Shown: piece by piece, positions 1,879 through 45,453 of the stretch | Numbering within the stretch: the stretch's first letter is position 1 | Layout of the letters: the number at the start of each line of letters is the position of its first letter | From: an uncultured Clostridia bacterium | Lineage (GTDB): Bacteria > Bacillota > Clostridia > TANB77 > CAG-508 | Assembly: GCA_944386325.1 (NCBI GenBank) | Contig: CALXAP010000002.1 | Span: 63,030-127,029 of the forward strand | Direction: 5' to 3' | DNA: 64,000 nucleotides | Made by a program: the position numbers and the translations under genes | Notes under the pieces: model-generated | What the model was told of the DNA's origin: nothing | The model's input: only the letters and a program-made list of their open reading frames with translations | Databases searched by the model: none

Positions 1879-4800
1879 CTATTCTTTTTTATGACTTTTT
1901 CTTTTAATCATTACAATTATTCCTGCTATTATAATAAGTATTAATGCTCCTGCTACATAATATTTTGCAATTTCTCCTCCTAATGGTTTAGTTATATTAA
2001 TTTTTCTTGCTTGAGTATTATCAACTTCATTATTATCGCTATTTGGTACATAATTTCCTGGTATTCCTCTGTATGCTCTTCTTCCTGCTTCATTACTTCT
2101 TTGAACAATTTCTAAACAATTTTGGAATGATAAAGTTGCATTATCATCTTGCGGTGATATTACTTTACTTAGCACTATATACCCAACTATTTCTGTCTGA
2201 CCGCCTTCTTGTGCTTCTTTACTACCTATTGGATATAATTCTACTCTTAATCCATCTGTTTGCAATATTTGTAAGTTTTGCTCTTCTACTGCTTCTAATA
2301 CATTATCAGCAACTTTATTTGCTTGTGTAGTTTCTATTCTTTCCCATATATCTCCATTTTCTTCTGCTTTTTGTTCTTCTGGTTTATAAACAAAATTGCT
2401 ACTAATGTATTGATATACCCAATCAGCTTGTGTTGTAATAGTTTCATCACTTGCACCTTCTACATAATTGCTCATTTTATCTATCTCGCCAGTATTTCTT
2501 ATTCTAACTAGATATTTAACACGGATTTCTGCACCATGCATAATTTCCTCATCCATATATACTGAAATTGGAACTTTTTCTTCTTCTTTATCTAAACCAT
2601 TAACATTTTTATTAACACCTTTTTCTGTATCAACTATAATCTGTCCATCACTTAATTTTACTTGTATACCTGCTACTTCTTCTTCTAGACTCAATTCTGC
2701 TTTTGGTCTTTCTCTTAAACCTAGATTTACTTGTTCTACTTTATCTTTTAATACATTATTAGGAACAAAATTAACAGATTTCGTCTGTGCAGACATCTTT
2801 GTTTCTTCTGCTAATTTTCTAATTGCTTCTGTTTTTTGCTCTCCTTCCTTCATATTTCTTATACCTTCTACATCTAGCATTAATCCTAATTCTAGGTCAA
2901 ATGTACTAAATTTATCCATTTGTGCTATTCTTTCATCTTGATTATCTTTACCATAACTTCTATCCTCTTTTATAATACATTCTTCTAAAATTTGTTCATA
3001 TATTTTACCAACTATATCATTATACATATTTTCTGTATTAATTCTATATACTTTTCCTCTTCTTGGATTTGATTCTGTACCAAAAATCTGTTCAGAATCC
3101 TTTGTTAATATTGTAATTAAATCAATATTATTATCATCTAACTCTTCAATTTCTTTAATAACATCTTCATTTGTCTCTTCTGTTGGTCTACCATCTGTAA
3201 TTAAAATAATTATTTTCTTTCTACTATTATTGCTATATTCTGAAGACATTAAATTTATTGCTTTTTGTATACTTGTTTCACCTTCAGAAGTTAAACCTCT
3301 AATTGTATTTTGTAAATCTGTTTGATTGTCTCCTAATTGACCTAGTACCGCCGCTTCACTATTATAAGCAACTAGACCTATTTTTACTCCTGATAATTGT
3401 TCATTTAATTTTCTAACCAATTCTATTGCTGCTCTTTTTTCTTGATTAATTGGCTCTCCACTCATACTATTTGAAATATCTAATCCAAGCATTATTTCTA
3501 CATCAGAATAATTATTAGTTGCATCTGTATCTTTATATATATCTTCTGTTGCAACAGCTTGATAATCTTGACCATTATATTTTAAATTGTGTTTTAGTTG
3601 TTCTTCTTCACCGTAAATAAATTCCACATGATAATTTCCTGCAGATAATCTACTAAATCTATATCCACCATTTAATTCTTCATTATTACTTATAGATAAT
3701 TGTCTGCCTGTTCTTGCCTCATCTACTTTTTTAGTTAAACTTGCCCCTGTTTGTGGATTTGTAAATGTTTCATACAATTCTACTCTTACATAATCTACTA
3801 GTGGCTCATTTCTTTGTCTTATTCCATCTCCAACTATTTGATTATTTGATAAAGTAACTGTATTATTTCCATGTCTTAAATCATCCCAAACATTTCCTTC
3901 TATTGTATTTCCATAACGATTATTTTCTTCACTATCATCATCCATAACTAATCTTAGATTTGGTGATCTGTCTTCATCATCTTCATATGTACTTTTATCT
4001 GTATTTGGATTCAAATTACCTGGTCTAGAATTTTCATCAATTAAACCAACTACACTTCCATCATCTTTATTAAATGTTCTGTAACCGTTAATTTCTGCTA
4101 TATTTGCATTATCACCTTCTAATATAACTGCATTATTGTTTTTATTTATTTTAAATATAATGTGTAACTCTATATATTTTCCATTTCCTACTTCTAGATT
4201 TTCTAAACTTTGTGTATACATTTTATTATATTCTGAATATTGATTACTTTGTCCATATTTTGAATTTTGACTCCAATCAACTTTTATCTTATTTTCATCC
4301 TGAACTGTTTCACTTTCTGTAATATTTTCAGATTTCACAACAGCCCATGATGTCATTTCAATATCTCTGTAGCTATCATTACTATAAATCAAATTTTTAC
4401 TATAATAATCTGCCAATTCGGTTATTTTTGCTATATCATTTTCACCAGTATTTCTAATAATCATCATATAATCTAAATAAACTTCTAATTCGCAATCATT
4501 TGCATTTGCCCATACAGACGCTAAACTATCATCCCATCTCCATTCATAATCAGCTCTATTAACATATTGAGTATAATCTGATATATCTTGTATCTGATCT
4601 TTATTTCTCAAATTTTTCTCATTATAAGCAAACCTTTGTGTCATTCCTTTTATAGAAAATGTAGATTCATATACATCTAAAGTTAGATTTTCATTTGTTT
4701 TCTCTCTTTCTGATAATCCTAAATCGATATTTTTTTCATCTTCTATCATCATATATTCAACTTTGTTAATTGTAAATTTTTCAGTTAAAGGATAATATAT

Positions 4801-7800
4801 ATTACTGCTCGCTGTATTAGTAGCAATTTCATATTGTTGTCTAGAAACTTCATTTTCATTTCTAGTTACAATTTTACTATTGTTACCTTCTTGTCTATAC
4901 TCTAAATTAGTTGTTGTTCCATCTGTTCCAATTGCTCCATTTGGAGTAATTTCATAATAACGATTATTTAAATTCTGTCTATTCTCTTTTGTCTCTTCTG
5001 CCTTTGAATTATTAATATATTTTTCATCATCTGGATTATTCTTATAATCTGTTACATTTCCATTTATTAAAAATTTTGTAGTCCTATATGTTTGTCCATC
5101 ATATTTGTATTCTATTTCATATAAACCAGGTCTTATATTTTCAAAACGATAGTTTCCATTTTCATCTGTGTAAACAGGATTTTGACTTGTTAATTTTGTC
5201 GTTGGAGTAGTTTCATCTTTTTTATATAATGTAACTTTTACACCTTTTATTTTCTTTTCATTATTCTCGTTAATTCCATTAGATATCATTTCATTTTGGT
5301 CATTCCACACATTTCCTTCAAAATTCATAGTTAACCTAATTTTTCCATCAATATCTAATTCTTGTATGTGTTTTTTATATTCTTTTTTTACCCAATCTAC
5401 TTCTATTAATTTTTGCGAATCTACTCTTCCTAAAGTAACTTTATCTGCAATTAAATAATATGTATGTCCTATAATATGTGCATCTTGCATTCCATGAGGA
5501 CAACTTCTTCCTCCTGGGCATCTTTCTGTTCTATATCCAGCTTTCCATTCTACTTCATTATAAGTTCCTTCCAAAATGCTATACTTAGCATCTATATTTA
5601 ATTCTTGATGTTCTATTTCTATTTTACTAATCTCTCTTACATTTTCATTTGCTTCATCATCTATCACAAAATAAAACTCTTCATTTGGATAAGGATATGG
5701 ATATTCTTCATATGTTTCTGCTCTATTTTGTAATTTTTTATTTTCATCATATTCAATATTCCATGTATTTGATGGTATTATATTACCATCCTGATCATAT
5801 ATTCTAATTTCTTTTATTCCACTAAACTCAATTTTTTCTCCACCTTTTTCTGTATAACTCCTTAAATAGTCTACTTTATATGGACCTATAATAATTTTTT
5901 TAGATTCTACATTGTATCCAACTACAGTATCTAATTTCTCCTGACTTGTTTTATATCCACCTTGTCCATCTATTTGTTTTCTGAATTTAGCATATTCTTT
6001 TGCTTCTATAGATATTTTATTATCTGGAGCTGAAGCCCCCTCATTTATACCTATTGCATACATTGCCAATTGACTTTGTGATTGTAAACTATTGTTTTCA
6101 TCTAAGAAAGATAATATATATGCTTCTTCATCTGTTGCATTTCCCTCTTTTCCTTCTCTTATAGGTGGAATTGTTTCAAAATATTTTCCAATAGAATGAC
6201 TCTTTGTATCTGTATAAATATTTTTTAAATTCGTACCATCTTCAACATACTTTTCACCTATTATTTGACCTCTATATGGATTTTTTACATACATCTTAAA
6301 GTCTCCGCTTTCCACTGTTGCATCAAGTTGTGTTCCATTACTCATTGCTGGAATATGTACCCCATTTGCAATACAATATAAATATTTATCTTGATCTACT
6401 TCCTCTTCTGGTATAAATCTTCCACCATCTGGCTCTAATTTTTTAGAAATCATAAATCCTAATCTTGCAGGCTCTATTTGTGTTGGATATTTACCTTCTG
6501 TTGTATTAAGTGTAAAATACACACCATGATGACTATAACTTATTCTGTCATATTCTAGGCCCTCTGGTATATTTATATTATAAGTAAATTTATGAGTTTC
6601 ACCTTGACTCATAGTATAATTGTTTAATACTATAAGAAAGCTTTTTACTTTGCTAAAATCCCTAGGTGTCATTGTCCATCCATTCGATGAATCATTTAAA
6701 TCTTTAGTAGCATTTATTTTTTCTGAATAATACACTTTCGCTACACTTCTTAATATTGGAGGTACTGTAATACCTTCATTTGTCATTGTTGTACTGTAAT
6801 CTGATCCTATGTCTTTTCCATTAATAACATATTTTGAGCCTTCTGTTGGTATTATACCTAATATTGAAATCTCACTAATTACTCCAGAATAGTTATTTGT
6901 AATATTAACCTCTACTGTAGCAGTTCTTTGATCTTTTGCAACTTCAGCCACCCTAGGAGATACAGCAATACTTCCTTCATCATCATAGTTTAAACCTCTC
7001 TGCCCTGTTACTAGTGAATTTGATGCAATCAATGCAATTGTTCTTTCTGTTGTTCCTATCTTTTCATCTATATTATTATTTTCATTTACATCATAGATAT
7101 CACTTACTATGTCTGGTTCATAATCTACACCAATTTCATTATATGTGTACAATTCTAATTCTTCATCTTGAGTTGGCGAACCTGGATTTGGTGTTATTGT
7201 ACAATCTAGATATATTAGGAAATATTGTGGGTTATCATTTTTTGTTTTTATTTTAACAAAAACACTTCCCTCACTATAGTATTTATAATAATTTTCTATT
7301 TTTACATTAGGGTTATCTGTTGTAATATTTTTTATTTCCACATCCGCTATATCTGGTGGAAATTTTAATAAAAATTGTCCATTTTTCCATGGAGATATGA
7401 TATCAGTATATGAATCAAACTTATTTTTTGGTACACCGATTCTTATTTGCATATCTTGTGATTTTTGTGTAGATACAACTGTTTCATCACTATAATAATC
7501 ATTGTTATCTATATCCATACCAACCAAAGATATTGGATATATATATCTTGCTGTATCATCAGTACTTAAATGCCACTCTCCTGCATATGCTTCTACATAA
7601 CTTTCTATGTAAGAAAATGTATCAAATACTTCTTTAGAATAAGTGTTTGTAATATATGTATCATCTAATTCTTTTGTATTATATACATAAAAATATGAGT
7701 TTGTATTATATAATTTACTCGTTTCCACCCTTATGTGTTTGACTGGTTTTTTATACCAATAAGGATTATTTTCACTATACCTATTCATATTTTGTATATT

Positions 7801-9315
7801 AAAAGTTACTAATAATTCATTAGTATCATCATTATATACATTTATCCAACCATCATTTCCAAGCATATTTATATTATATGGTATATATATTGCAGCATGT
7901 TTACTGAAATTTTCCATACTTATTTGTTGTCCATCTGTAGTAATGATTACATCTGATTTCTTTTTCTCTCCATTTGGAGTCTCTTTTAATACTACACCAT
8001 TTTCATAAACTCCACCATCGCCATCAAATCTCCATTCTACTGGATAATAATCTCCTGTTTCATTTTTTGATAAATTGTTATATATTCTTGCTGGCTTTTC
8101 TTTTGATACATAATACATACTATAAATATCATAACTATATAAACTTGATAAATAATAACCTACATCTATGTATAAATATGGTCTTACTATTGGCACAGGT
8201 CTTGGTCTAAATAAATTTAAATTTATTGTAGCTTGTACTTCATTAGATTTATATGGGTTCTGAAATTCCCCACTTGGATTATTGTACGAATTTATATAAA
8301 CTTTTACTGGAACTTGCACATCTTGTTCACCCAAAACCTTATTATATGCTTCCATAGGATATGTTACATTTAATCTTACATACTTATAATAAGAATAATC
8401 ACTAAACCCTCCTGTTTTTTCAATAACAAAATTGCCTGTGTTGCTATCATATGTTACTTTACTATAACTGTCTGTTGTTGTTACACTTAAAGCACTATAT
8501 CCATTTAACTTTGGTATTGTTCCTTCTATATGCATATCTTTAGTCTCTAATTGCCTTATATTCTCTCTTATAGATATCTCAAAATCTACTTCTATGACAT
8601 TTTCTTCTTCATTTACCATATCATCTTCATAATTATATTGATTAGTATCGCTAGAATCCCATTGAATTTTATTTGTACCATACCAATCGACTTGGAAATT
8701 TACTGTCTTTTGTATTGGTGTTTCTTTAGTTGTACCATCCGGTAAAGTTTCTACATGTATACCTGTTAAAGTTATAGAATTTATTTTTGAATATTTGTCT
8801 CTATTTAGCGGTGTACTTGGTGATTTTACTATACCAGATATGAGCATATGTGTTCCATTTTCTAAATTATTAAATTCTATATTACTTATATTACTTCCTA
8901 TATAATTATCTTTTATTTGAGTATCTGCTGCTAATTGTGTTGTTAATTGGAAATTTCCACCATAGTTAGTACCATTAACAGTTATTCTTCCATCTTTTAA
9001 ATAACCATTTTCAACTACTTCTAACTCCATATATAAAGTATCTGATTCTCCTATTTCTTTACATGTTCCTCTTACCTTATCTGCAATTCCATCATTGTTC
9101 AAATCTTTGAAAAAATATGAATCAAACTTAACATATTGAGAATTCGTAGATTCTTCTCCTATTTGTACTTGAGGGTATGTCATTGCTAAAATATTTTCTG
9201 GTCTACTATTTATAATCATATTATTTATTTGTTTATAGCATAATGGTATTAGAGCTATTATTATCATTATAACTCCTAATATCATAATTATTTTTTTATA
9301 TTTCTTTATTTTCAT
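1879..9315 (-). CDS. giant (2478 aa) cell-surface adhesin-like protein with a vWA domain and Cna-B-type repeats; C-terminal TM anchor
   Basis: Single uninterrupted ORF with an N-terminal signal/TM (MKIKKYKKIIMILGVIMIIIALIPLCY). MIDAS-type vWA motif DISNSMSG...ILITDG. Prealbumin/Cna-B-like segments (VKVTLYKKDETTP...NGNYRFENIRPGLYEIEY; GGYRFSRLSAGNYHVEF). C-terminal hydrophobic helix plus KRKSHKKE tail. No LPXTG seen. Confidence 0.75.
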   Translation of the reverse strand: MKIKKYKKIIMILGVIMIIIALIPLCYKQINNMIINSRPENILAMTYPQVQIGEESTNSQYVKFDSYFFKDLNNDGIADKVRGTCKEIGESDTLYMELEVVENGYLKDGRITVNGTNYGGNFQLTTQLAADTQIKDNYIGSNISNIEFNNLENGTHMLISGIVKSPSTPLNRDKYSKINSITLTGIHVETLPDGTTKETPIQKTVNFQVDWYGTNKIQWDSSDTNQYNYEDDMVNEEENVIEVDFEISIRENIRQLETKDMHIEGTIPKLNGYSALSVTTTDSYSKVTYDSNTGNFVIEKTGGFSDYSYYKYVRLNVTYPMEAYNKVLGEQDVQVPVKVYINSYNNPSGEFQNPYKSNEVQATINLNLFRPRPVPIVRPYLYIDVGYYLSSLYSYDIYSMYYVSKEKPARIYNNLSKNETGDYYPVEWRFDGDGGVYENGVVLKETPNGEKKKSDVIITTDGQQISMENFSKHAAIYIPYNINMLGNDGWINVYNDDTNELLVTFNIQNMNRYSENNPYWYKKPVKHIRVETSKLYNTNSYFYVYNTKELDDTYITNTYSKEVFDTFSYIESYVEAYAGEWHLSTDDTARYIYPISLVGMDIDNNDYYSDETVVSTQKSQDMQIRIGVPKNKFDSYTDIISPWKNGQFLLKFPPDIADVEIKNITTDNPNVKIENYYKYYSEGSVFVKIKTKNDNPQYFLIYLDCTITPNPGSPTQDEELELYTYNEIGVDYEPDIVSDIYDVNENNNIDEKIGTTERTIALIASNSLVTGQRGLNYDDEGSIAVSPRVAEVAKDQRTATVEVNITNNYSGVISEISILGIIPTEGSKYVINGKDIGSDYSTTMTNEGITVPPILRSVAKVYYSEKINATKDLNDSSNGWTMTPRDFSKVKSFLIVLNNYTMSQGETHKFTYNINIPEGLEYDRISYSHHGVYFTLNTTEGKYPTQIEPARLGFMISKKLEPDGGRFIPEEEVDQDKYLYCIANGVHIPAMSNGTQLDATVESGDFKMYVKNPYRGQIIGEKYVEDGTNLKNIYTDTKSHSIGKYFETIPPIREGKEGNATDEEAYILSFLDENNSLQSQSQLAMYAIGINEGASAPDNKISIEAKEYAKFRKQIDGQGGYKTSQEKLDTVVGYNVESKKIIIGPYKVDYLRSYTEKGGEKIEFSGIKEIRIYDQDGNIIPSNTWNIEYDENKKLQNRAETYEEYPYPYPNEEFYFVIDDEANENVREISKIEIEHQELNIDAKYSILEGTYNEVEWKAGYRTERCPGGRSCPHGMQDAHIIGHTYYLIADKVTLGRVDSQKLIEVDWVKKEYKKHIQELDIDGKIRLTMNFEGNVWNDQNEMISNGINENNEKKIKGVKVTLYKKDETTPTTKLTSQNPVYTDENGNYRFENIRPGLYEIEYKYDGQTYRTTKFLINGNVTDYKNNPDDEKYINNSKAEETKENRQNLNNRYYEITPNGAIGTDGTTTNLEYRQEGNNSKIVTRNENEVSRQQYEIATNTASSNIYYPLTEKFTINKVEYMMIEDEKNIDLGLSEREKTNENLTLDVYESTFSIKGMTQRFAYNEKNLRNKDQIQDISDYTQYVNRADYEWRWDDSLASVWANANDCELEVYLDYMMIIRNTGENDIAKITELADYYSKNLIYSNDSYRDIEMTSWAVVKSENITESETVQDENKIKVDWSQNSKYGQSNQYSEYNKMYTQSLENLEVGNGKYIELHIIFKINKNNNAVILEGDNANIAEINGYRTFNKDDGSVVGLIDENSRPGNLNPNTDKSTYEDDEDRSPNLRLVMDDDSEENNRYGNTIEGNVWDDLRHGNNTVTLSNNQIVGDGIRQRNEPLVDYVRVELYETFTNPQTGASLTKKVDEARTGRQLSISNNEELNGGYRFSRLSAGNYHVEFIYGEEEQLKHNLKYNGQDYQAVATEDIYKDTDATNNYSDVEIMLGLDISNSMSGEPINQEKRAAIELVRKLNEQLSGVKIGLVAYNSEAAVLGQLGDNQTDLQNTIRGLTSEGETSIQKAINLMSSEYSNNSRKKIIILITDGRPTEETNEDVIKEIEELDDNNIDLITILTKDSEQIFGTESNPRRGKVYRINTENMYNDIVGKIYEQILEECIIKEDRSYGKDNQDERIAQMDKFSTFDLELGLMLDVEGIRNMKEGEQKTEAIRKLAEETKMSAQTKSVNFVPNNVLKDKVEQVNLGLRERPKAELSLEEEVAGIQVKLSDGQIIVDTEKGVNKNVNGLDKEEEKVPISVYMDEEIMHGAEIRVKYLVRIRNTGEIDKMSNYVEGASDETITTQADWVYQYISSNFVYKPEEQKAEENGDIWERIETTQANKVADNVLEAVEEQNLQILQTDGLRVELYPIGSKEAQEGGQTEIVGYIVLSKVISPQDDNATLSFQNCLEIVQRSNEAGRRAYRGIPGNYVPNSDNNEVDNTQARKINITKPLGGEIAKYYVAGALILIIIAGIIVMIKRKSHKKE

Positions 9316-34070: not shown

Positions 34071-34484
34071 TTATTTCTTAGGTTTTTTTGCTCCATATTT
34101 AGATCTAGCTTGATTTCTATCTTTAACTCCAGCTGTATCTAAAGTTCCTCTTATTATGTGATATCTAACACCAGGTAAGTCTTTAACTCTTCCACCTCTT
34201 ATTAAAACAACACTATGTTCTTGTAAGTTGTGACCTATTCCTGGTATGTATGAAGTAACTTCATAACCATTTGAAAGTCTTACCCTAGCAACTTTTCTTA
34301 AAGCTGAGTTTGGTTTTTTAGGTGTAACTGTTTTAACTACTGTACATACACCTCTTTTTTGTGGTGCTCTATTATCTGTTTGTCTATTCTTTTTAGAGTT
34401 AAAACCTTTTTGAAGAGCTGGTGCATTAGATTTTGTTGTTGAGCTTTTTCTTCCTTTTCTTACTAATTGATTAATTGTTGGCAT
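34071..34484 (-). CDS. rpsL: 30S ribosomal protein S12
   Basis: [12 protein letters not shown]... [11 protein letters not shown] typical S12. Confidence 0.95.
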
Positions 34485-34612
34485 TTTTTCACCTCCGCTA
34501 AATAAAATATATTACTAATATTCTCTATATTAGCATTGTATATTTTACCATTGTTTTAGCACTTAGTCAATATTTAGTGGAATTTATATCTTCAATTTTT
34601 AAGAAATATCTT

Positions 34613-34644
34613 TGTAGGACAGGCGAACACTGCTTTCCCCTACA
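34613..34644 (+). repeat. GC-rich palindrome family C copy, upstream of the rpsL operon
   Basis: TGTAGGACAGGCGAACACTGCTTTCCCCTACA, preceded by a B-like module AATTTATATCTTCAATTTTTAAGAAATATCTT. Confidence 0.7.
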
Positions 34645-34720
34645 ACTATAATATTAGATTTTATAAATCTTTTTGTACATATATTTTTTAGATAATAGAA
34701 ATTTAAATTTCCTATTATTT

Positions 34721-34752
34721 AAAAAACCGCACCTATATAGATGCGGTTTTTT
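34721..34752. terminator. bidirectional rho-independent terminator
   Basis: AAAAAACCGCACCTATATAGATGCGGTTTTTT, 5 bp after the stop of the 34757..34966 gene. Confidence 0.7.
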
Positions 34753-34756
34753 ACTT

Positions 34757-34966
34757 TCATTTTAAGAGTGAAATTATTTCATTCACTTTTATCCCTACGT
34801 CTGAATCTTCGTTTGATGTAGGTGATGTGATATCAAGAATATTTTTTTCATTTTCAATCACCTTTTTACTTTGATTGCTCATTGCTAATGCTTCTGAGCA
34901 ATTTACATTTACCGTTCCAAATACAATAGCTACACCCAAAAAAACATACAGCAATCTTGTAAACAT
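34757..34966 (-). CDS. small secreted protein (cassette 1 of a 5-gene array)
   Basis: 69 aa. GGAGG 8 nt upstream of the ATG. Signal peptide MFTRLLYVFLGVAIVFGTVNVNCSEA. Confidence 0.55.
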   Translation of the reverse strand: MFTRLLYVFLGVAIVFGTVNVNCSEALAMSNQSKKVIENEKNILDITSPTSNEDSDVGIKVNEIISLLK

Positions 34967-35071
34967 TTTAGTGTCCTCCTTAAAAATTATTAAATTACAA
35001 TATTTATATCATGTTTTATGTAAAGCTGTCAATGCTTTTGTTTAATTTTGTAAATTAAAAGGTAACTCTAT

Positions 35072-35322
35072 GTTACAATTCACAGCTAATAAAATATATA
35101 AAGATTTTGATATAATAATATTGAATAAATTTTGAATGCGATTGGAGATGTTTATAGAATTTGTTATATAATTTAATGAGGAATGTTCATGGGCAAAATC
35201 TTTGATTTTGAGCCTGAATGAAAGAGGCTCATTAAATTATTTTACAAATTCTTAAATATCGTATTGAGCCGAAAAATTTATGAAATATTATCATATCAAA
35301 ATCGTATGCCGTGAATAGTAAC
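35072..35322 (+). repeat. composite MITE-like element carrying the ~170-bp E module (copy 1)
   Basis: Termini GTTACAATTCACAGC ... GCCGTGAATAGTAAC. Interior nearly identical to 45204-45453 and 63361-63573. Contains the RBS + micro-ORF at 35189..35221. Confidence 0.8.
35189..35221 (+). other. conserved 10-codon micro-ORF MGKIFDFEPE inside the E module (copy 1), overlapped by the hairpin GAGCCTGAATGAAAGAGGCTC
   Basis: GAGGA 6 nt upstream of the ATG. Identical ORFs at 45319..45351 and 63440..63472. Confidence 0.35.
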
Positions 35323-35372
35323 AACTCTATTAAGAAGTAGAATTAATATATTCAATTTTTGAGAAATATCTT

Positions 35373-35404
35373 TGTAGTTCGGGCGAACACTGTTTGCCCC
35401 TACA
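35373..35404 (+). repeat. GC-rich palindrome family C copy
   Basis: TGTAGTTCGGGCGAACACTGTTTGCCCCTACA preceded by ATATATTCAATTTTTGAGAAATATCTT. Confidence 0.75.
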
Positions 35405-35457
35405 TCTATTCTATTAGATTTTTTCTATTTTAGATTTTACATCTAAATAGTTAAATT

Positions 35458-35487
35458 AAAAGAGATGCCTATTAAAAGCATCTCTAT
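35458..35487 (-). terminator. rho-independent terminator of cassette 2
   Basis: AGAGATGC-TTTTAAT-AGGCATCTCT hairpin followed by a T-run on the minus strand. Confidence 0.65.
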
Positions 35488-35503
35488 GGAGTCATCATTA
35501 TTG

Positions 35504-35845
35504 CTAAGTATCAATAGGTATAAATTTTATTTTTGCATAAAATTTTCCTTTATAATCACTACTGCAATTATTATAGATAATAAGATAATTTTCTGGTGCA
35601 TCTAGCACATTTAAAGAGTACATTATATCTTGTAATACCTTGCTATCATAATCAATCAGCAATTCTAATTTTTTATTAGAGTTATCTGCCAGAAAATTCA
35701 TAATTGTTTTCAAATCTGATTCTTCAAGTTGATACACTTGATTATCGTCATTTTCAACTCGTACAACTGCAGATGCATCTGTAGTTGTTGTCATAGCATT
35801 TGCTAATATAAATAAGAATGCAACTACAAGTAATAACTTTTTCAT
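35504..35845 (-). CDS. small secreted protein (cassette 2)
   Basis: Longest ORF reaches 35875, but AAGGAG sits before the internal ATG at 35845 (MKKLLLVVAFLFILANA signal peptide). Own sigma-A-like promoter and terminator. Confidence 0.55.
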   Translation of the reverse strand: MKKLLLVVAFLFILANAMTTTTDASAVVRVENDDNQVYQLEESDLKTIMNFLADNSNKKLELLIDYDSKVLQDIMYSLNVLDAPENYLIIYNNCSSDYKGKFYAKIKFIPIDT

Positions 35846-36022
35846 GATGAACCGACTCCTTTTTAAGTAATACATATTAAATGTCAGTATCTGTATTATA
35901 CCACTTTTTATAGTGCTTAGTAAACAATTTATGTTATTTTTATGAGCATTTTAAAAGAGGGCGTCTATTCAGACACCCTCCCATGGAGTCAACGAAAAAA
36001 ATTCACTTCACTACTTATTTAA

Positions 36023-36466
36023 TTATTTAATGTTCTCGCTCTGATATTGATTATACAGCGACAATGCCGCCACCACACTTTGTAGGGTTTTGTTTAGATT
36101 AGCCCTCCTTTCTTCTGCTTCTGGAGAAGAACCATCCAATACTTCAATTTCATAATATGATGTCCCATCGTCATACTCCCATTTCTTATGGTATATTATG
36201 AAAACATCTTCATTACTATATGCAGTTTCTAACTGCTTATTGAAATTAGATTTTTCTTCTCTATTGTCAAGCCAAACTTGAAATTCACCTCCAGCCTCCT
36301 TAACTAACGCTTTAAGTTCTTCTGGAGTAACTCCATTTAAATCATAAGCCACTGCATTTTCTGCAGTTCCAGTCTGTATGACAGGCTGTGCATAACTATG
36401 ATTTAAACCAAATCCCAAAATCAAACCCGAAACAACAACCAACATAGTAACTATCATTTTTTTCAT
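36023..36466 (-). CDS. small secreted protein (cassette 3)
   Basis: 147 aa. Signal peptide MKKMIVTMLVVVSGLILGFGLNHSYA. RBS GGAGG. Promoter TTTACA-N17-TATAAT at ~36505-36535 (minus strand). Confidence 0.6.
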   Translation of the reverse strand: MKKMIVTMLVVVSGLILGFGLNHSYAQPVIQTGTAENAVAYDLNGVTPEELKALVKEAGGEFQVWLDNREEKSNFNKQLETAYSNEDVFIIYHKKWEYDDGTSYYEIEVLDGSSPEAEERRANLNKTLQSVVAALSLYNQYQSENIK

Positions 36467-36689
36467 TTAATTTTCCTCCAAACTGAATACACTACGTTGA
36501 GCTCCATGACTATATTATAGCATTTTTAGCATAAGTTGTAAATGCTTTATGTTAATTTGATATATTAGTTCTACTTATACTTATTATTATTTAGAATTTC
36601 AACACTTTTATAAAGCATTTATTTTGATAAGCATATTAAAAGGAGGGTCTACTAAGACACCTCCCTATGGAGCAATTTTTTTACTACTA

Positions 36690-37031
36690 CTATTCTAAAT
36701 CAATTATAAATATATTTTGTTCCATTACTTCATCGTCTTTTCCAAACCATGTTGGTTCAGATAATATGATGTAGTAATTTCCATCCATTACAGCCTCTCC
36801 TAGGCTTGTAATTTTTAATTCATCCTCTGTCTTAACAGACATTACTTTAATTTTACTTATCCCTCCTCCTAATTCAGTAGCAAAAACTTCTTTACTCGTA
36901 TTTGCGATTTCATAGACATTCCCATCAATTTCAGCTGTAATTTCCTGATACTTTTGAGTATCAGATGCATTTGTAATGCTAGCAAAAGATAAGGTAATCA
37001 AAGCAATCATTAAAACAAATACTTTTTTCAT
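36690..37031 (-). CDS. small secreted protein (cassette 4)
   Basis: 113 aa. Signal peptide MKKVFVLMIALITLSFASITNA. Promoter TTTACA-N17-TATAAT at ~37070-37100 (minus strand), homologous to the cassette 3 promoter. Confidence 0.6.
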   Translation of the reverse strand: MKKVFVLMIALITLSFASITNASDTQKYQEITAEIDGNVYEIANTSKEVFATELGGGISKIKVMSVKTEDELKITSLGEAVMDGNYYIILSEPTWFGKDDEVMEQNIFIIDLE

Positions 37032-37271
37032 AAAAAATTACTCCCTTCAAAATGCAAAACATGTTGCTCCATGACTATATTATAACATTTTTAGCACAAT
37101 CTGTAAATGTATTATGTGAATTTTGTTATTAGTTATACTTATGCCTATTATTATTTTAATTATATATCATCTTATACTTTTTGATTTTTAGGCATTTTAA
37201 AAGAGATGCCTATTTAGACATCTCTTTTGGAGCAATTTGTTTATATCCGAAAAATATATGTTATTATTCAT

Positions 37272-37583
37272 TTATATCTCAAAAATATACCCACTTTCTA
37301 CTAAAACCTCATTTTGACTTTCTTTCCAGCTCCTGTTTGTAATCTTTATATAATAACCTCCATTATTCAACTTATTTATACTTGTCTTATCCCTACTTAT
37401 AGGTATCCGCTCTATTTTGTTAATTGATTGAAGATTTTGTTTTAAAGTTTCTACTGAATTATTTCGATTATTAATTCTACTAATTAAATCTTGATAACTA
37501 TTTACTCTATCATACGCCATACAATTTGTAGTATTAAGAACTAATAATCCAACAAATGAGAAAATCGCTAATAATGTTTTCAT
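37272..37583 (-). CDS. small secreted protein (cassette 5)
   Basis: 103 aa. Signal peptide MKTLLAIFSFVGLLVLNTTNCMA. Confidence 0.55.
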   Translation of the reverse strand: MKTLLAIFSFVGLLVLNTTNCMAYDRVNSYQDLISRINNRNNSVETLKQNLQSINKIERIPISRDKTSINKLNNGGYYIKITNRSWKESQNEVLVESGYIFEI

Positions 37584-37693
37584 TTTAATCGCTCCTTTTG
37601 TAATATACTAAGTTGCTCCAGTTTTTCTATTATATCACTTTTTTTATAAATCTCAATATTTTATGTGAATTTTTTTAATTTTATTATTTATGT

Positions 37694-37852
37694 GTTATTA
37701 TAATTCACAGCTTATATAGTTACATGTTCAATTTCTTGATAAATAGCTCTGTTGTGCGGGCGAACACTGCTTGCCCCTACAGCTATTCTATTAGATTCTT
37801 CTATATAAGTTTTTATAGATTTTGATATAATTATATAGCTGTAAATTGTAAC
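37694..37852 (+). repeat. composite MITE-like element (A-B-C-D-A') between cassette 5 and the Nudix gene
   Basis: GTTATTATAATTCACAGC ... AGCTGTAAATTGTAAC termini. Contains TGTTGTGCGGGCGAACACTGCTTGCCCCTACAGC (37750-37783). Confidence 0.75.
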
Positions 37853-37853
37853 T

Positions 37854-38255
37854 TTAATTTAAATCTTTTAAAACATCTCTTAAAACTTGTTTAGATTCCT
37901 CAAATGTAATCTCATCAAGAGCTTTCTCTACATCAACCCAAATAATTTGTGCCACTTCTTCTTCTTGGGGTTTATCTTCACCAGAAACTTTTCTTGCTAA
38001 AAAATAAATAACATCTTTTATAACACCTTCTTCTGGTGAATATGTTTCTTTATATACTTTATCGCTAATTATTTCAACATCAATATTTGTTTCTTCTTTT
38101 ATTTCTCTTATTGCAGTTTCTTTATCTGTTTCATTTTCTTCTGGATGTCCCTTTGGAAATCCTATATGCCCTTTTTGATGTTTTACAAGTAATACTTTTC
38201 CATGATCAATTACAATACATCCACATGATTTATCTTTTTTCATAAAAACCTCCAT
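37854..38255 (-). CDS. Nudix hydrolase
   Basis: Nudix box GFPKGHPEENETDKETAIREIKEETNI (GX5EX7REUXEEXGU). Confidence 0.8.
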   Translation of the reverse strand: MEVFMKKDKSCGCIVIDHGKVLLVKHQKGHIGFPKGHPEENETDKETAIREIKEETNIDVEIISDKVYKETYSPEEGVIKDVIYFLARKVSGEDKPQEEEVAQIIWVDVEKALDEITFEESKQVLRDVLKDLN

Positions 38256-38270
38256 TTGAGTAATTTCTTC

Positions 38271-38304
38271 GCAATACGGGCGAACAATGTTTGCCCCCTA
38301 CATA
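38271..38304 (+). repeat. GC-rich palindrome family C copy, 16 bp upstream of the Nudix start
   Basis: GCAATACGGGCGAACAATGTTTGCCCCCTACATA. Confidence 0.7.
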
Positions 38305-38413
38305 TCTACTATTATTTTTTTACTAAAATATTTAAATTCTCTACTTTCTAAGTATTAATTAACTAACTATATATCTTTTTGTAGTAGCTTCTTATATTAA
38401 AAAATTTAGAGTA

Positions 38414-38542: not shown

Positions 38543-38962
38543 CTATGGCAATACATACCTTATATTTCTAGTTATTGTTGTGCCTTTACCTATTTCCATA
38601 TTTACTGCGACAACTTGTTTATAATCAATATTTATTAATTGAAACGTACATTTTTTTACATGATTAACTAATGCTACTTTATTTAAATATATCTTATTAT
38701 CCTGAAAAGTATATTTATTTCCACTACTAAATTCAATAGAATTACTTGTTACATTTGTAACTTCATTATTTAATTTTTTTACTTCTTCTACAAAAGCCAA
38801 ATTAAATTTACTATATTCTGCAACTCTATCTGTTGCTTCATTCATTTGTACAATATTCGTATTAATAAATGATATTATAACTGTAACTATTCCTATTATT
38901 ATAGTAAAACCTACTACATACACAACTAAATTTGCAAGTGTTATACCTTTATTATCTTTCAT
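38543..38962 (-). CDS. hypothetical single-pass membrane protein
   Basis: 139 aa. The N-terminus KGITLANLVVYVVGFTIIIGIVTVII is reminiscent of a pilin-like hydrophobic N-terminus but lacks the canonical G-F-T-L-I-E. Confidence 0.4.
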   Translation of the reverse strand: MKDNKGITLANLVVYVVGFTIIIGIVTVIISFINTNIVQMNEATDRVAEYSKFNLAFVEEVKKLNNEVTNVTSNSIEFSSGNKYTFQDNKIYLNKVALVNHVKKCTFQLINIDYKQVVAVNMEIGKGTTITRNIRYVLP

Positions 38963-45203: not shown

Positions 45204-45453
45204 GTTATAATTAACGGCATAAAATAATATAAAGAATTTGATATAATAATATTGAATAAATTTTGAATGTGATTGGAGATGTTTATAGAATTTGTTATAT
45301 AATTTAATGAGGAATGTTCATGGGCAAAATCTTTGATTTTGAGCCTGAATGAAAGAGGCTCATTTAATTATTTTACAAATTCTTAAATATCGTATTGAGC
45401 CGAAAAATTTATGAAATATTATTATTTCAAATTCATATAGCGTAAATTGTAAC
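45204..45453 (+). repeat. composite MITE-like element carrying the E module (copy 2)
   Basis: GTTATAATTAACGGC ... AGCGTAAATTGTAAC termini. Micro-ORF MGKIFDFEPE at 45319..45351. Confidence 0.8.

Follow-up and report, generated by a model that had tools for sequence, protein, structure and literature searches.

Tandem genes for small predicted secreted proteins in a low-GC Clostridia lineage: allelic replacement inside related transcription-unit shells and a predicted pairing of mRNA ends

The stretch of DNA analyzed here (the window) comprises 64,000 nt of contig CALXAP010000002.1 from an uncultured Clostridia bacterium, is about 25% GC and carries nearly all its genes on the minus strand. Five minus-strand open reading frames (ORFs), G1 to G5, are situated between a gene for a Nudix protein and rpsL (Table 1), and these genes, together with the promoter, leader and terminator around each of them (the shell), are the subject of this report. 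An earlier note, made from the sequence alone, had described five genes with signal peptides at this place. The ORFs were confirmed as real, and by inspection all five N-termini follow the pattern of a Sec-type signal peptide (Lys/Arg, a hydrophobic stretch, small-x-small), read by eye as MKK with 12–18 hydrophobic residues and then ..NA/S, ..YA/Q, ..SA/V, ..MA/Y or ..LA/M. The start of G2 was taken as MKKLLL, the mechanically called ORF extending to 35875. In an AlphaFold2 model of G4 with a predicted local distance difference test (pLDDT) value of 85, the N-terminal segment is a detached helix of low confidence.

A perfect TATAAT with an upstream TG stands in front of each of G5, G4, G3 and G2, and the top three promoter matches of the 4-kb region precede G5, G4 and G3. 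The near-consensus promoter TTTACA-17-TATAAT, previously attributed to the whole array, was found at G3 and G4; G5 and G2 share the TATAAT with another −35 box or spacing, and G1 has TTGACA-18-TATAAA. Exactly two copies of the leader motif TATAATATAGTCATGGAGC are present in the 64 kb (0.07 expected), one upstream of G3 and one upstream of G4, the promoter–leader regions of these two genes are 75% identical (shuffle maximum 60%), and the G5–G4 and G4–G3 intergenic regions could be aligned end to end. The promoter–leader region of G5 is marginally similar to those of G4 and G3 and carries a recognizable TGGAGC leader; the G2 leader, which had been thought to belong to the same type, showed no detectable similarity to those of G3 and G4. 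The terminator modules of G2–G5 are mutually 67–81% identical (shuffle maximum 59%), so the hairpins are related in these four genes, and G1 has a terminator of a different type behind an unrelated promoter. The DNA of the mature ORFs showed a similarity among cassettes no higher than that of shuffled sequence. The shells are related, not near-identical as first described, and the relationship covers four terminators and two to three leaders. No Rfam family was found in the locus (gathering thresholds over the whole window; E ≤ 1 over 34480–38350). A look-up of the leader motif TAYAATATAGTCATGGAGC in metagenome contigs gave seven matches, all of them due to chance (unrelated contigs of 31–56% GC, no homologous proteins).

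Table 1. Coordinates of the array, its predicted signals and other features of the window (positions count from the first nucleotide of the window).
Feature	Position	Strand	Description
Nudix gene	37854-38255		flank of the array
G5	37272-37583	-	103-aa predicted secreted protein, G4/G5 ('YQD') family
G4	36690-37031	-	113-aa predicted secreted protein, G5 paralogue
G3	36023-36466	-	147-aa predicted secreted protein, long C-terminal helix, G2 paralogue
G2	35504-35845	-	113-aa predicted secreted protein, G2/G3 family
G1	34757-34966	-	69-aa predicted secreted protein or peptide precursor; separate family, own shell type
rpsL	34071-34484		flank of the array
G5 promoter	37629-37656	-	TTGAGA-16-TATAAT, TG upstream
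G4 promoter	37079-37107	-	TTTACA-17-TATAAT, TG upstream
G3 promoter	36514-36542	-	TTTACA-17-TATAAT, TG upstream
G2 promoter	35895-35924	-	TTTACT-18-TATAAT, TG upstream
G1 promoter	35003-35032	-	TTGACA-18-TATAAA, different shell type, read from sequence
G5 5′ element	37613-37620	-	TGGAGCAA
G5 3′ element	37228-37235	-	TTGCTCCA, abuts terminator
G4 5′ element	37064-37072	-	ATGGAGCAA, 7 nt after −10 box, predicted mRNA 5′ end
G4 3′ element	36667-36675	-	TTGCTCCAT, exact complement of G4 5′ element, 1 nt upstream of terminator stem
G3 5′ element	36495-36507	-	ATGGAGCTCAACG
G3 3′ element	35983-35994	-	CGTTGACTCCAT, abuts terminator
G2 3′ element	35486-35498	-	ATGATGACTCCAT, complementary to G2's own Shine–Dalgarno/start region (GGAGTC..ATCAT; Shine–Dalgarno sequence 35854-35859)
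G5 intrinsic terminator	37199-37227	-	
G4 intrinsic terminator	36638-36665	-	GGGAGGTGTC..GACCCTCC then T-run
G3 intrinsic terminator	35953-35982	-	
G2 intrinsic terminator	35458-35485	-	
G1 terminator	34721-34752	.	palindromic hairpin, different type
MITE-like element	about 35072-35335	+	~260 nt, between G2 and G1; core copies also at 45341-45370 and 63461-63490
MITE-like element, 31-nt arms	35103-35133/35273-35303		inverted repeat
MITE-like element, 25-nt arms	35156-35180/35228-35252		inverted repeat
MITE-like element, tiny ORF	35190-35222		MGKIFDFEPE, behind GAGGAA
REP-like repeat copies	34576-34671, 35336-35431, 37713-37808, 38255-38325; also 14259, 19363, 22215, 28336, 29622, 56715, 63303		
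Pilin-like protein gene	38543-38962	-	139 aa, between mnmA and Nudix
Adhesin-like protein gene	1879-9315	-	2478 aa, VWA and SdrD_B domains

The same locus was recovered from many metagenome contigs by exact and near-exact look-ups; one related sequencing run, SRR7683033, comes from chicken faeces (PMC7469296). A scan of genome contigs with the Nudix protein gave only distant relatives (at most 56% identity) in other Clostridia and Bacilli metagenome-assembled genomes, and no syntenic array. Within the species, the DNA of the flanks (Nudix, G5, G2 and rpsL) is 99–100% identical, with amino acid identities to the window of 98–99% for Nudix, 98% for G2 and 100% for rpsL and for the invariant G5, and a synonymous divergence (dS) of 0–0.04 for each of these genes. 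The alleles of G4 and G3 are hypervariable: those of G4 show 95–100%, 61% or 53% amino acid identity to the window, with 69.5–75.5% DNA identity for the diverged ones, and those of G3 show 100, 88, 85, 82, 73 or 66%, with 76–90% in DNA for the diverged ones. The dS of the diverged alleles of both genes is 0.26–1.55 and the ratio of nonsynonymous to synonymous divergence (dN/dS) 0.2–0.36. Their promoters, terminators and two short sequences described below as the 5′ and 3′ elements are still 85–100% identical, and divergence is seen only in the ORF and in that part of the leader which adjoins it; the diverged segment comprises the Shine–Dalgarno sequence (SD), the ORF and the proximal segment of the untranslated 3′ region (3′UTR).

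Comparison of the window with contig L101 showed 100% DNA identity over the G5 terminator, the spacer and the G4 promoter, 85% over the G4 leader, with differences only 3′ of the ATGGAGCAAC... element, 56% over the G4 signal-peptide codons, 67% over the mature G4 ORF and again 95% over the G4 3′UTR and terminator. As a further example, the G4–G3 intergenic region is 93% identical, as against dS values of 1.55 and 0.31 for the ORFs. Reassortment is independent, one G4 allele (G4a) being found with at least four G3 alleles, and mosaicism is seen within the G3 alleles as well. A mosaic between lineages is contig L102: its G5 and G2 are of the sister-lineage type, its G3 protein is the same as that of L101 and its G4 is nearly so. 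For G4 the dS separating the window from the sister lineage is 0.24, and for Nudix and G2 it is 0.76; the age of an allele thus does not follow that of its lineage. The sequence comparison shows that G3 and G4 occur as old, deeply diverged alleles, which pass from strain to strain and also from one sister lineage to another. Contigs L097 and L114 only seem to have lost G3 and G1, respectively: neither case is a deletion, the scaffolds being interrupted by runs of N exactly inside G3 (about 5640–5800) and G1 (about 3230–3240), respectively. These breaks probably reflect the co-existence of several alleles in one sample.

The coding sequences had been taken for unrelated, and two paralogous pairs were found among them. 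G4 and G5 are paralogous by BLASTP (E 2e-6) and by family alignment, and G2 and G3 by hhalign (probability 95%, E 4e-8, signal peptides removed), with a 156-aa and a 114-aa gene of other lineages as intermediates that bridge the latter two. The G4/G5 family is represented by 19 clusters among 5.8 billion proteins and by 9 representatives among 1.84 billion, and G3 by 10 clusters with identity down to 49%. No significant match for the array proteins was obtained in Pfam-A, NCBIfam, PHROGs, PADLOC, the PDB or viral structures, where all hits were sub-threshold and below the curated cut-offs. G4/G5 and G2/G3 are shown by these searches to be fast-diverging families of small, predicted secreted alpha/beta proteins, confined to a narrow low-GC gut clade. 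With four of its five ORFs belonging to two pairs of paralogues, the array is explained by duplication and divergence. A single superfamily is not claimed: single-linkage clustering with phmmer placed G2–G5 and a 125-aa family of sister lineages in one group, and this grouping was lost at profile level once signal peptides were strictly removed. The impression of G4 as an invariant orphan, given by a first word-based search that returned two clusters, was an artefact of sensitivity, alleles of 53–61% identity being in existence.

G1 is separate from both pairs. Beyond the signal peptide it has 41 highly charged residues with a conserved C-terminus, NE[IM]I[SC]LLK (homologues L089_4, L108_5 and L112_3), and to judge from this its product could be a secreted peptide precursor instead of a folded protein. 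No receptor gene was found near G1.

At the same chromosomal site, from Nudix to rpsL, the cassette sets differ between lineages: products of 103/113/147/113/69 aa are encoded in the window, 102/113/112/70/125 aa in L089, 109/143/114/110/69/125 aa in L108, 109/156/69/125 aa in L112 and 111/138/110 aa in L115. In L089 G3 is cleanly absent, with the junction right after the terminator T-run (...CCTCCTTTTAAAATGCTT joined to TAAATAAAAATAACAT), and L115 is without the 114-aa unit of L108, the crossover lying inside the terminator module; the junctions of cassette indels were thus located in or immediately after terminator modules. An extra cassette for a predicted secreted protein of 125 aa lies between G1 and rpsL in sister lineages (L089 3872–4249; L108 9538–9915; L112 8521–8898); it has a G1-type terminator and a UUCCCC motif after the stop codon, and is absent from the species of the window. 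The comparison of strains for gain and loss, which the earlier note had proposed, supports its suggestion of a variable cassette locus, as both alleles and cassette sets differ, G3 and G4 alleles being replaced and reassorted inside near-unchanged shells. Two outcomes had been named there as adverse to its reading: that the proteins are ordinary divergent paralogues largely proved to be the case, and invariance of the locus across strains is clearly false.

The idea that unrelated ORFs are placed in a common shell would, in its strict form, mean capture of the integron type, with foreign ORFs put into a fixed shell by site-specific recombination at the hairpins. Conserved shell DNA around mature ORFs no more similar than shuffles, indel junctions at terminator hairpins and inverted repeats flanking each ORF are in agreement with such capture, which we nevertheless regard as hardly credible. 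The ORFs are paralogues. Each unit has its own promoter (TGnTATAAT in G2–G5), unlike integron cassettes, and promoterless attC-type cassettes were not seen; GC-rich stems followed by T-runs mark the 3′ hairpins as terminators. As the families are found only in this clade, no external cassette pool is visible. The genes within about 6 kb on either side are all housekeeping genes, with no recombinase or capture machinery among them; precomputed Pfam annotation gives scpB, aspS, mnmA and Nudix upstream, and rpsL, rpsG, fusA and tuf downstream. The array is flanked in six lineages by these genes and by a 139-aa pilin-like protein between mnmA and Nudix. No intI integrase or attI site was found among the flanking genes of the six lineages or in the larger window ORFs scanned, a subset of the 64 kb (AddB, RecG, PlsX, an ABC-2 permease and a VWA adhesin). 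The simplest mechanism for both exchange and indels would be ordinary recombination, homologous or unequal, with the conserved, repeated shells as homology arms.

When the units of all lineages were compared side by side, a short 5′ element was found to start 4–8 nt after the −10 box, and in G3-, G4- and G5-type units this element is the reverse complement of the sequence abutting the terminator of the same unit. The two elements of G3 are complementary at 12 positions, with a single C bulged out; in the minimum free energy (MFE) structure the number is 11. The G5-type helix of the sister lineage has a ninth pair, which is U-A where G4-type units have A-U. The G3 class has an extension, TCAACG/CGTTGA, which adds six complementary bases on each side at the matching position; the chance of finding it there is about 3e-4 by our own estimate from base composition. 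The extension is retained in the window, L101, L108, L112 and L115 despite ORFs that are as low as 49% identical or belong to another length class, and in L110 the first C of the G3-type 3′ element is lost. The DNA segment swapped between alleles (SD, ORF and proximal 3′UTR) lies exactly between the two pairing elements.

Partition-function folds were computed for the full predicted mRNAs (430–560 nt, with 3′UTRs of 20–75 nt), the transcription start site being assumed 7 nt after the −10 box. The predicted probability of pairing between the 5′ end and the 3′UTR was 0.65–0.98 for every G3- and G4-type unit (six contigs, all allele classes), 0.2–0.4 for G5 and close to 0 for units of the G2 and 125-aa types. 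The helix between the two ends stops, in the MFE structure, 0–1 nt from the terminator stem. When the first 16 nt were shuffled, none of 30 sequences reached the observed pairing for G4, and none of 30 for G3. The 3′UTRs of G2-, G5-, G1′- and 125-aa-type units contain a CUCC, CUCCCC or UUCCCC motif after the stop codon. By thermodynamic prediction, the probability that the SD is paired with the 3′UTR was 0.65–1.0 for G5- and G2-type units, 0.59–0.64 for the 125-aa type, 0.36–0.82 for G1-type units of other lineages, 0.00 for the G1 of the window and 0.00–0.01 for G3- and G4-type units. Two other approaches were abandoned: RNAduplex runs of whole leaders against whole 3′UTRs were uninformative, AT-rich sequences giving long loose duplexes, and were replaced by the full-length folds; an antiterminator model, with CUCC bound to the terminator's left arm, was dropped because a helix of 4 bp cannot outcompete stems of 10–13 bp.

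We consider it rather probable that the tandem array arose by repeated duplication of one monocistronic unit, that alleles of its members G3 and G4 are exchanged, and that the shells are kept for a function of the RNA. The duplicated unit would run from an extended −10 promoter of the sigma-A type through a short 5′ element and the SD to an ORF that begins with a signal peptide, followed by a 3′ element and an intrinsic terminator. In mRNAs of the G3 and G4 types the first bases (AUGGAGC...) would pair with the ...GCUCCAU that abuts the terminator, giving a panhandle stacked on the terminator hairpin; by analogy with the hbs mRNA considered below, this may shield the 5′ end from 5′-end-dependent RNases and leave the true SD free. 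In units of the G2, G5, G1′ and 125-aa types the partner predicted for the 3′ CUCC motif is instead the true SD, in a manner resembling icaR. Such functions at the RNA level would be the reason why the shells have remained constant. The deep polymorphism of the exported proteins suggests frequency-dependent selection by an outside agent, for instance phage, host immunity or competitors.

Several observations weigh against this explanation. Swaps of 3′UTRs among G2–G5 keep the pairing and a GGAG/CUCC core is common to all of these units, so the pairing is a property of the module and not a gene-specific code; much of the complementarity is therefore accounted for by the shared ancestry of the shells. 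There are few independent covariation events, two of 30 shuffles reached the observed pairing for unit L112_2, the pairing of G5 is weak (probability 0.2) and in G2 the 5′ element has disappeared. The transcript boundaries are predicted ones, and thermodynamic folds of translated mRNAs of 430–560 nt are unreliable. On the side of the proteins, positive selection is not demonstrated, since dN/dS is below 1; old alleles could also be explained by import from unsampled lineages, and the absence of G3 is known from one contig only.

An ordinary array of paralogues without any RNA mechanism would make use of the same observations. The likeness of the shells would then be a remnant of duplication homogenized by gene conversion, the complementarity a by-product of a GGAG initial transcribed sequence and of the CUCC of an extended terminator, and the variability of the ORFs a result of relaxed constraint or import. 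The core shared by all G2–G5 units, the small number of covariation events, dN/dS values of 0.2–0.36 instead of values above 1, and the maintenance of G2 in spite of its missing 5′ element are all in line with it. We hold this explanation to be unlikely, although it deserves to be taken seriously. The shells have diverged far less than the adjoining ORFs have at synonymous sites, which requires constraint or repeated crossovers exactly there; the six extra bases of the G3 class occur on both sides and persist across lineages with very different ORFs; and the elements lie exactly at the predicted 5′ end of the transcript and at the foot of the terminator.

The position of the elements also bears on an explanation at the DNA level, in which ATGGAGC at +1 and GCTCCAT at the 3′ end are paired operators of one regulator, possibly with looping. 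At G3, G4 and G5 the motif overlaps the predicted +1, inverted copies follow each ORF, and its conservation would be accounted for without RNA structure. We regard paired operators as quite improbable: there is no regulator gene in the locus, a protein operator would not require the G3-specific extension to be complementary end to end, and a role in the RNA better explains why the 3′ copy is placed directly at the terminator stem. Returning to the duplicated unit with RNA-level constraint, one extension of it would make the shells plug-and-play modules, in which the pairing elements serve also as homology arms for exchange of the ORF throughout the population, the pairing stabilizes the mRNA and a 5′-terminal GGAG acts as a decoy that diverts the 3′ anti-SD from the true SD, so that the sequence of a secreted protein under frequency-dependent selection changes without a change in expression. 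We put this forward as a doubtful elaboration.

The array is real and is more interesting at the population level than in a single window, and the earlier reading of it was half right. Its novelty lies in the combination of a tandem array of exported paralogues and allelic replacement with a predicted hbs- or icaR-like pairing of mRNA ends common to a family of units. If the predictions are correct, the locus would offer a rare natural 5′/3′-UTR interaction outside model organisms, conserved over paralogous units, together with covariation data at the sequence level for a mechanism known from only few genes; end-to-end pairing of bacterial mRNA, so far known from the single genes hbs and icaR, would here be maintained in use throughout a family. 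A regulatory shell would be decoupled from a fast-evolving exported protein, and strains of a gut commensal would swap alleles of exposed proteins with expression undisturbed. The two orphan secreted families (G4/G5 and G2/G3) of this chicken-gut lineage would be likely targets of pressure from phage, host or competitors. Even if the predictions fail, a clear recombination hotspot with trans-lineage alleles is present in a core region of the genome.

Two kinds of repeats lie in the intergenic DNA of the array. An element resembling a miniature inverted-repeat transposable element (MITE), situated between G2 and G1, has nested inverted repeats, can be folded as a single long hairpin (z = −9 to −12) and is present in three copies in the window, all on the plus strand and about 98% identical over about 205 nt. 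It is missing at the G2–G1 site in L090, L091, L096 and L101 and is found between G1 and rpsL in L090 and L101; its positions differ between strains, and it is therefore mobile now or was so recently. No Rfam match was obtained for it. It directly adjoins copies of a second repeat, similar to repetitive extragenic palindromic (REP) sequences, whose core GGGCGAACACTGTTCGCCCCTAC forms an 8-bp hairpin within a conserved unit of about 96 nt. At least 11 copies of this REP-like repeat are present in the 64 kb (0 expected), 10 of 11 in the same orientation relative to the genes, and one of them constitutes the 5′UTR of the Nudix gene. The copies vary by strain, L096 being without the one between G1 and rpsL.

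The 139-aa protein encoded between mnmA and Nudix has an N-terminus like that of type IV pilins or pseudopilins (MKDNKGITLANLVVYVVGF...), and a family search with it gave no significant match; in the sister lineages (L102, L108) it ends earlier, at 125 aa. In many Firmicutes rpoB–rpoC precede rpsL. Here the str operon begins right after the array of secreted proteins, and rpsL has no rpoB–rpoC in front. Farther away, the window encodes a large protein similar to surface adhesins (Table 1).

The array resembles an integron array in that small ORFs stand in a row, a hairpin-forming repeat comes after each of them and cassettes are present or absent according to the genome, and differs from it in having no integrase or attI, one promoter per unit, hairpins that are terminators and ORFs that are paralogues. 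The agr specificity groups and the pneumococcal comC and blp genes are allelic-replacement loci of the pherotype or serotype-like kind. With these the present locus has in common deeply diverged alleles in conserved flanks, sharing across lineages and a dN/dS below 1 between allele classes; it differs in being without a cognate receptor, transporter or immunity gene and in products that are folded domains of about 90–120 aa, not peptides.

In Bacillus subtilis hbs, a 14-nt sequence of the 5′UTR pairs with a fully complementary one just upstream of the terminator and limits the access of RNases Y and J1 (Braun, Durand & Condon 2017, PMC5737220). A short mRNA, here predicted to be monocistronic, a small protein and a 5′UTR segment complementary to a pre-terminator segment are found again in G3, G4 and G5. 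The partner here would be the predicted 5′ terminus itself and in hbs is a site downstream of 5′ hairpins; the helix, predicted here from sequence, has 8–12 bp and not 14, and recurs across a family of tandem units. In Staphylococcus aureus icaR, a UCCCC anti-SD motif of the 3′UTR pairs with the 5′UTR (Ruiz de los Mozos 2013, PMC3868564). Likewise, a C-rich 3′UTR motif is predicted to pair with the unit's own SD in G2-, G5-, G1′- and 125-aa-type units. Here, where the pairing is known from predicted folds, the 3′UTRs are only 20–75 nt long and the partner in G3- and G4-type units is the 5′-terminal GGAG, not the SD.

The ssl and lpl clusters of S. aureus, carried by the genomic island vSa-alpha, are tandem arrays of exported paralogues with strain-variable copy number. 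They are similar to the array described here in consisting of individually transcribed paralogous genes for secreted proteins or lipoproteins which vary from strain to strain in number and in alleles. There is no relationship between the protein families, and the present array lies among core housekeeping genes and not on an island, its alleles being swapped inside a near-invariant shell.

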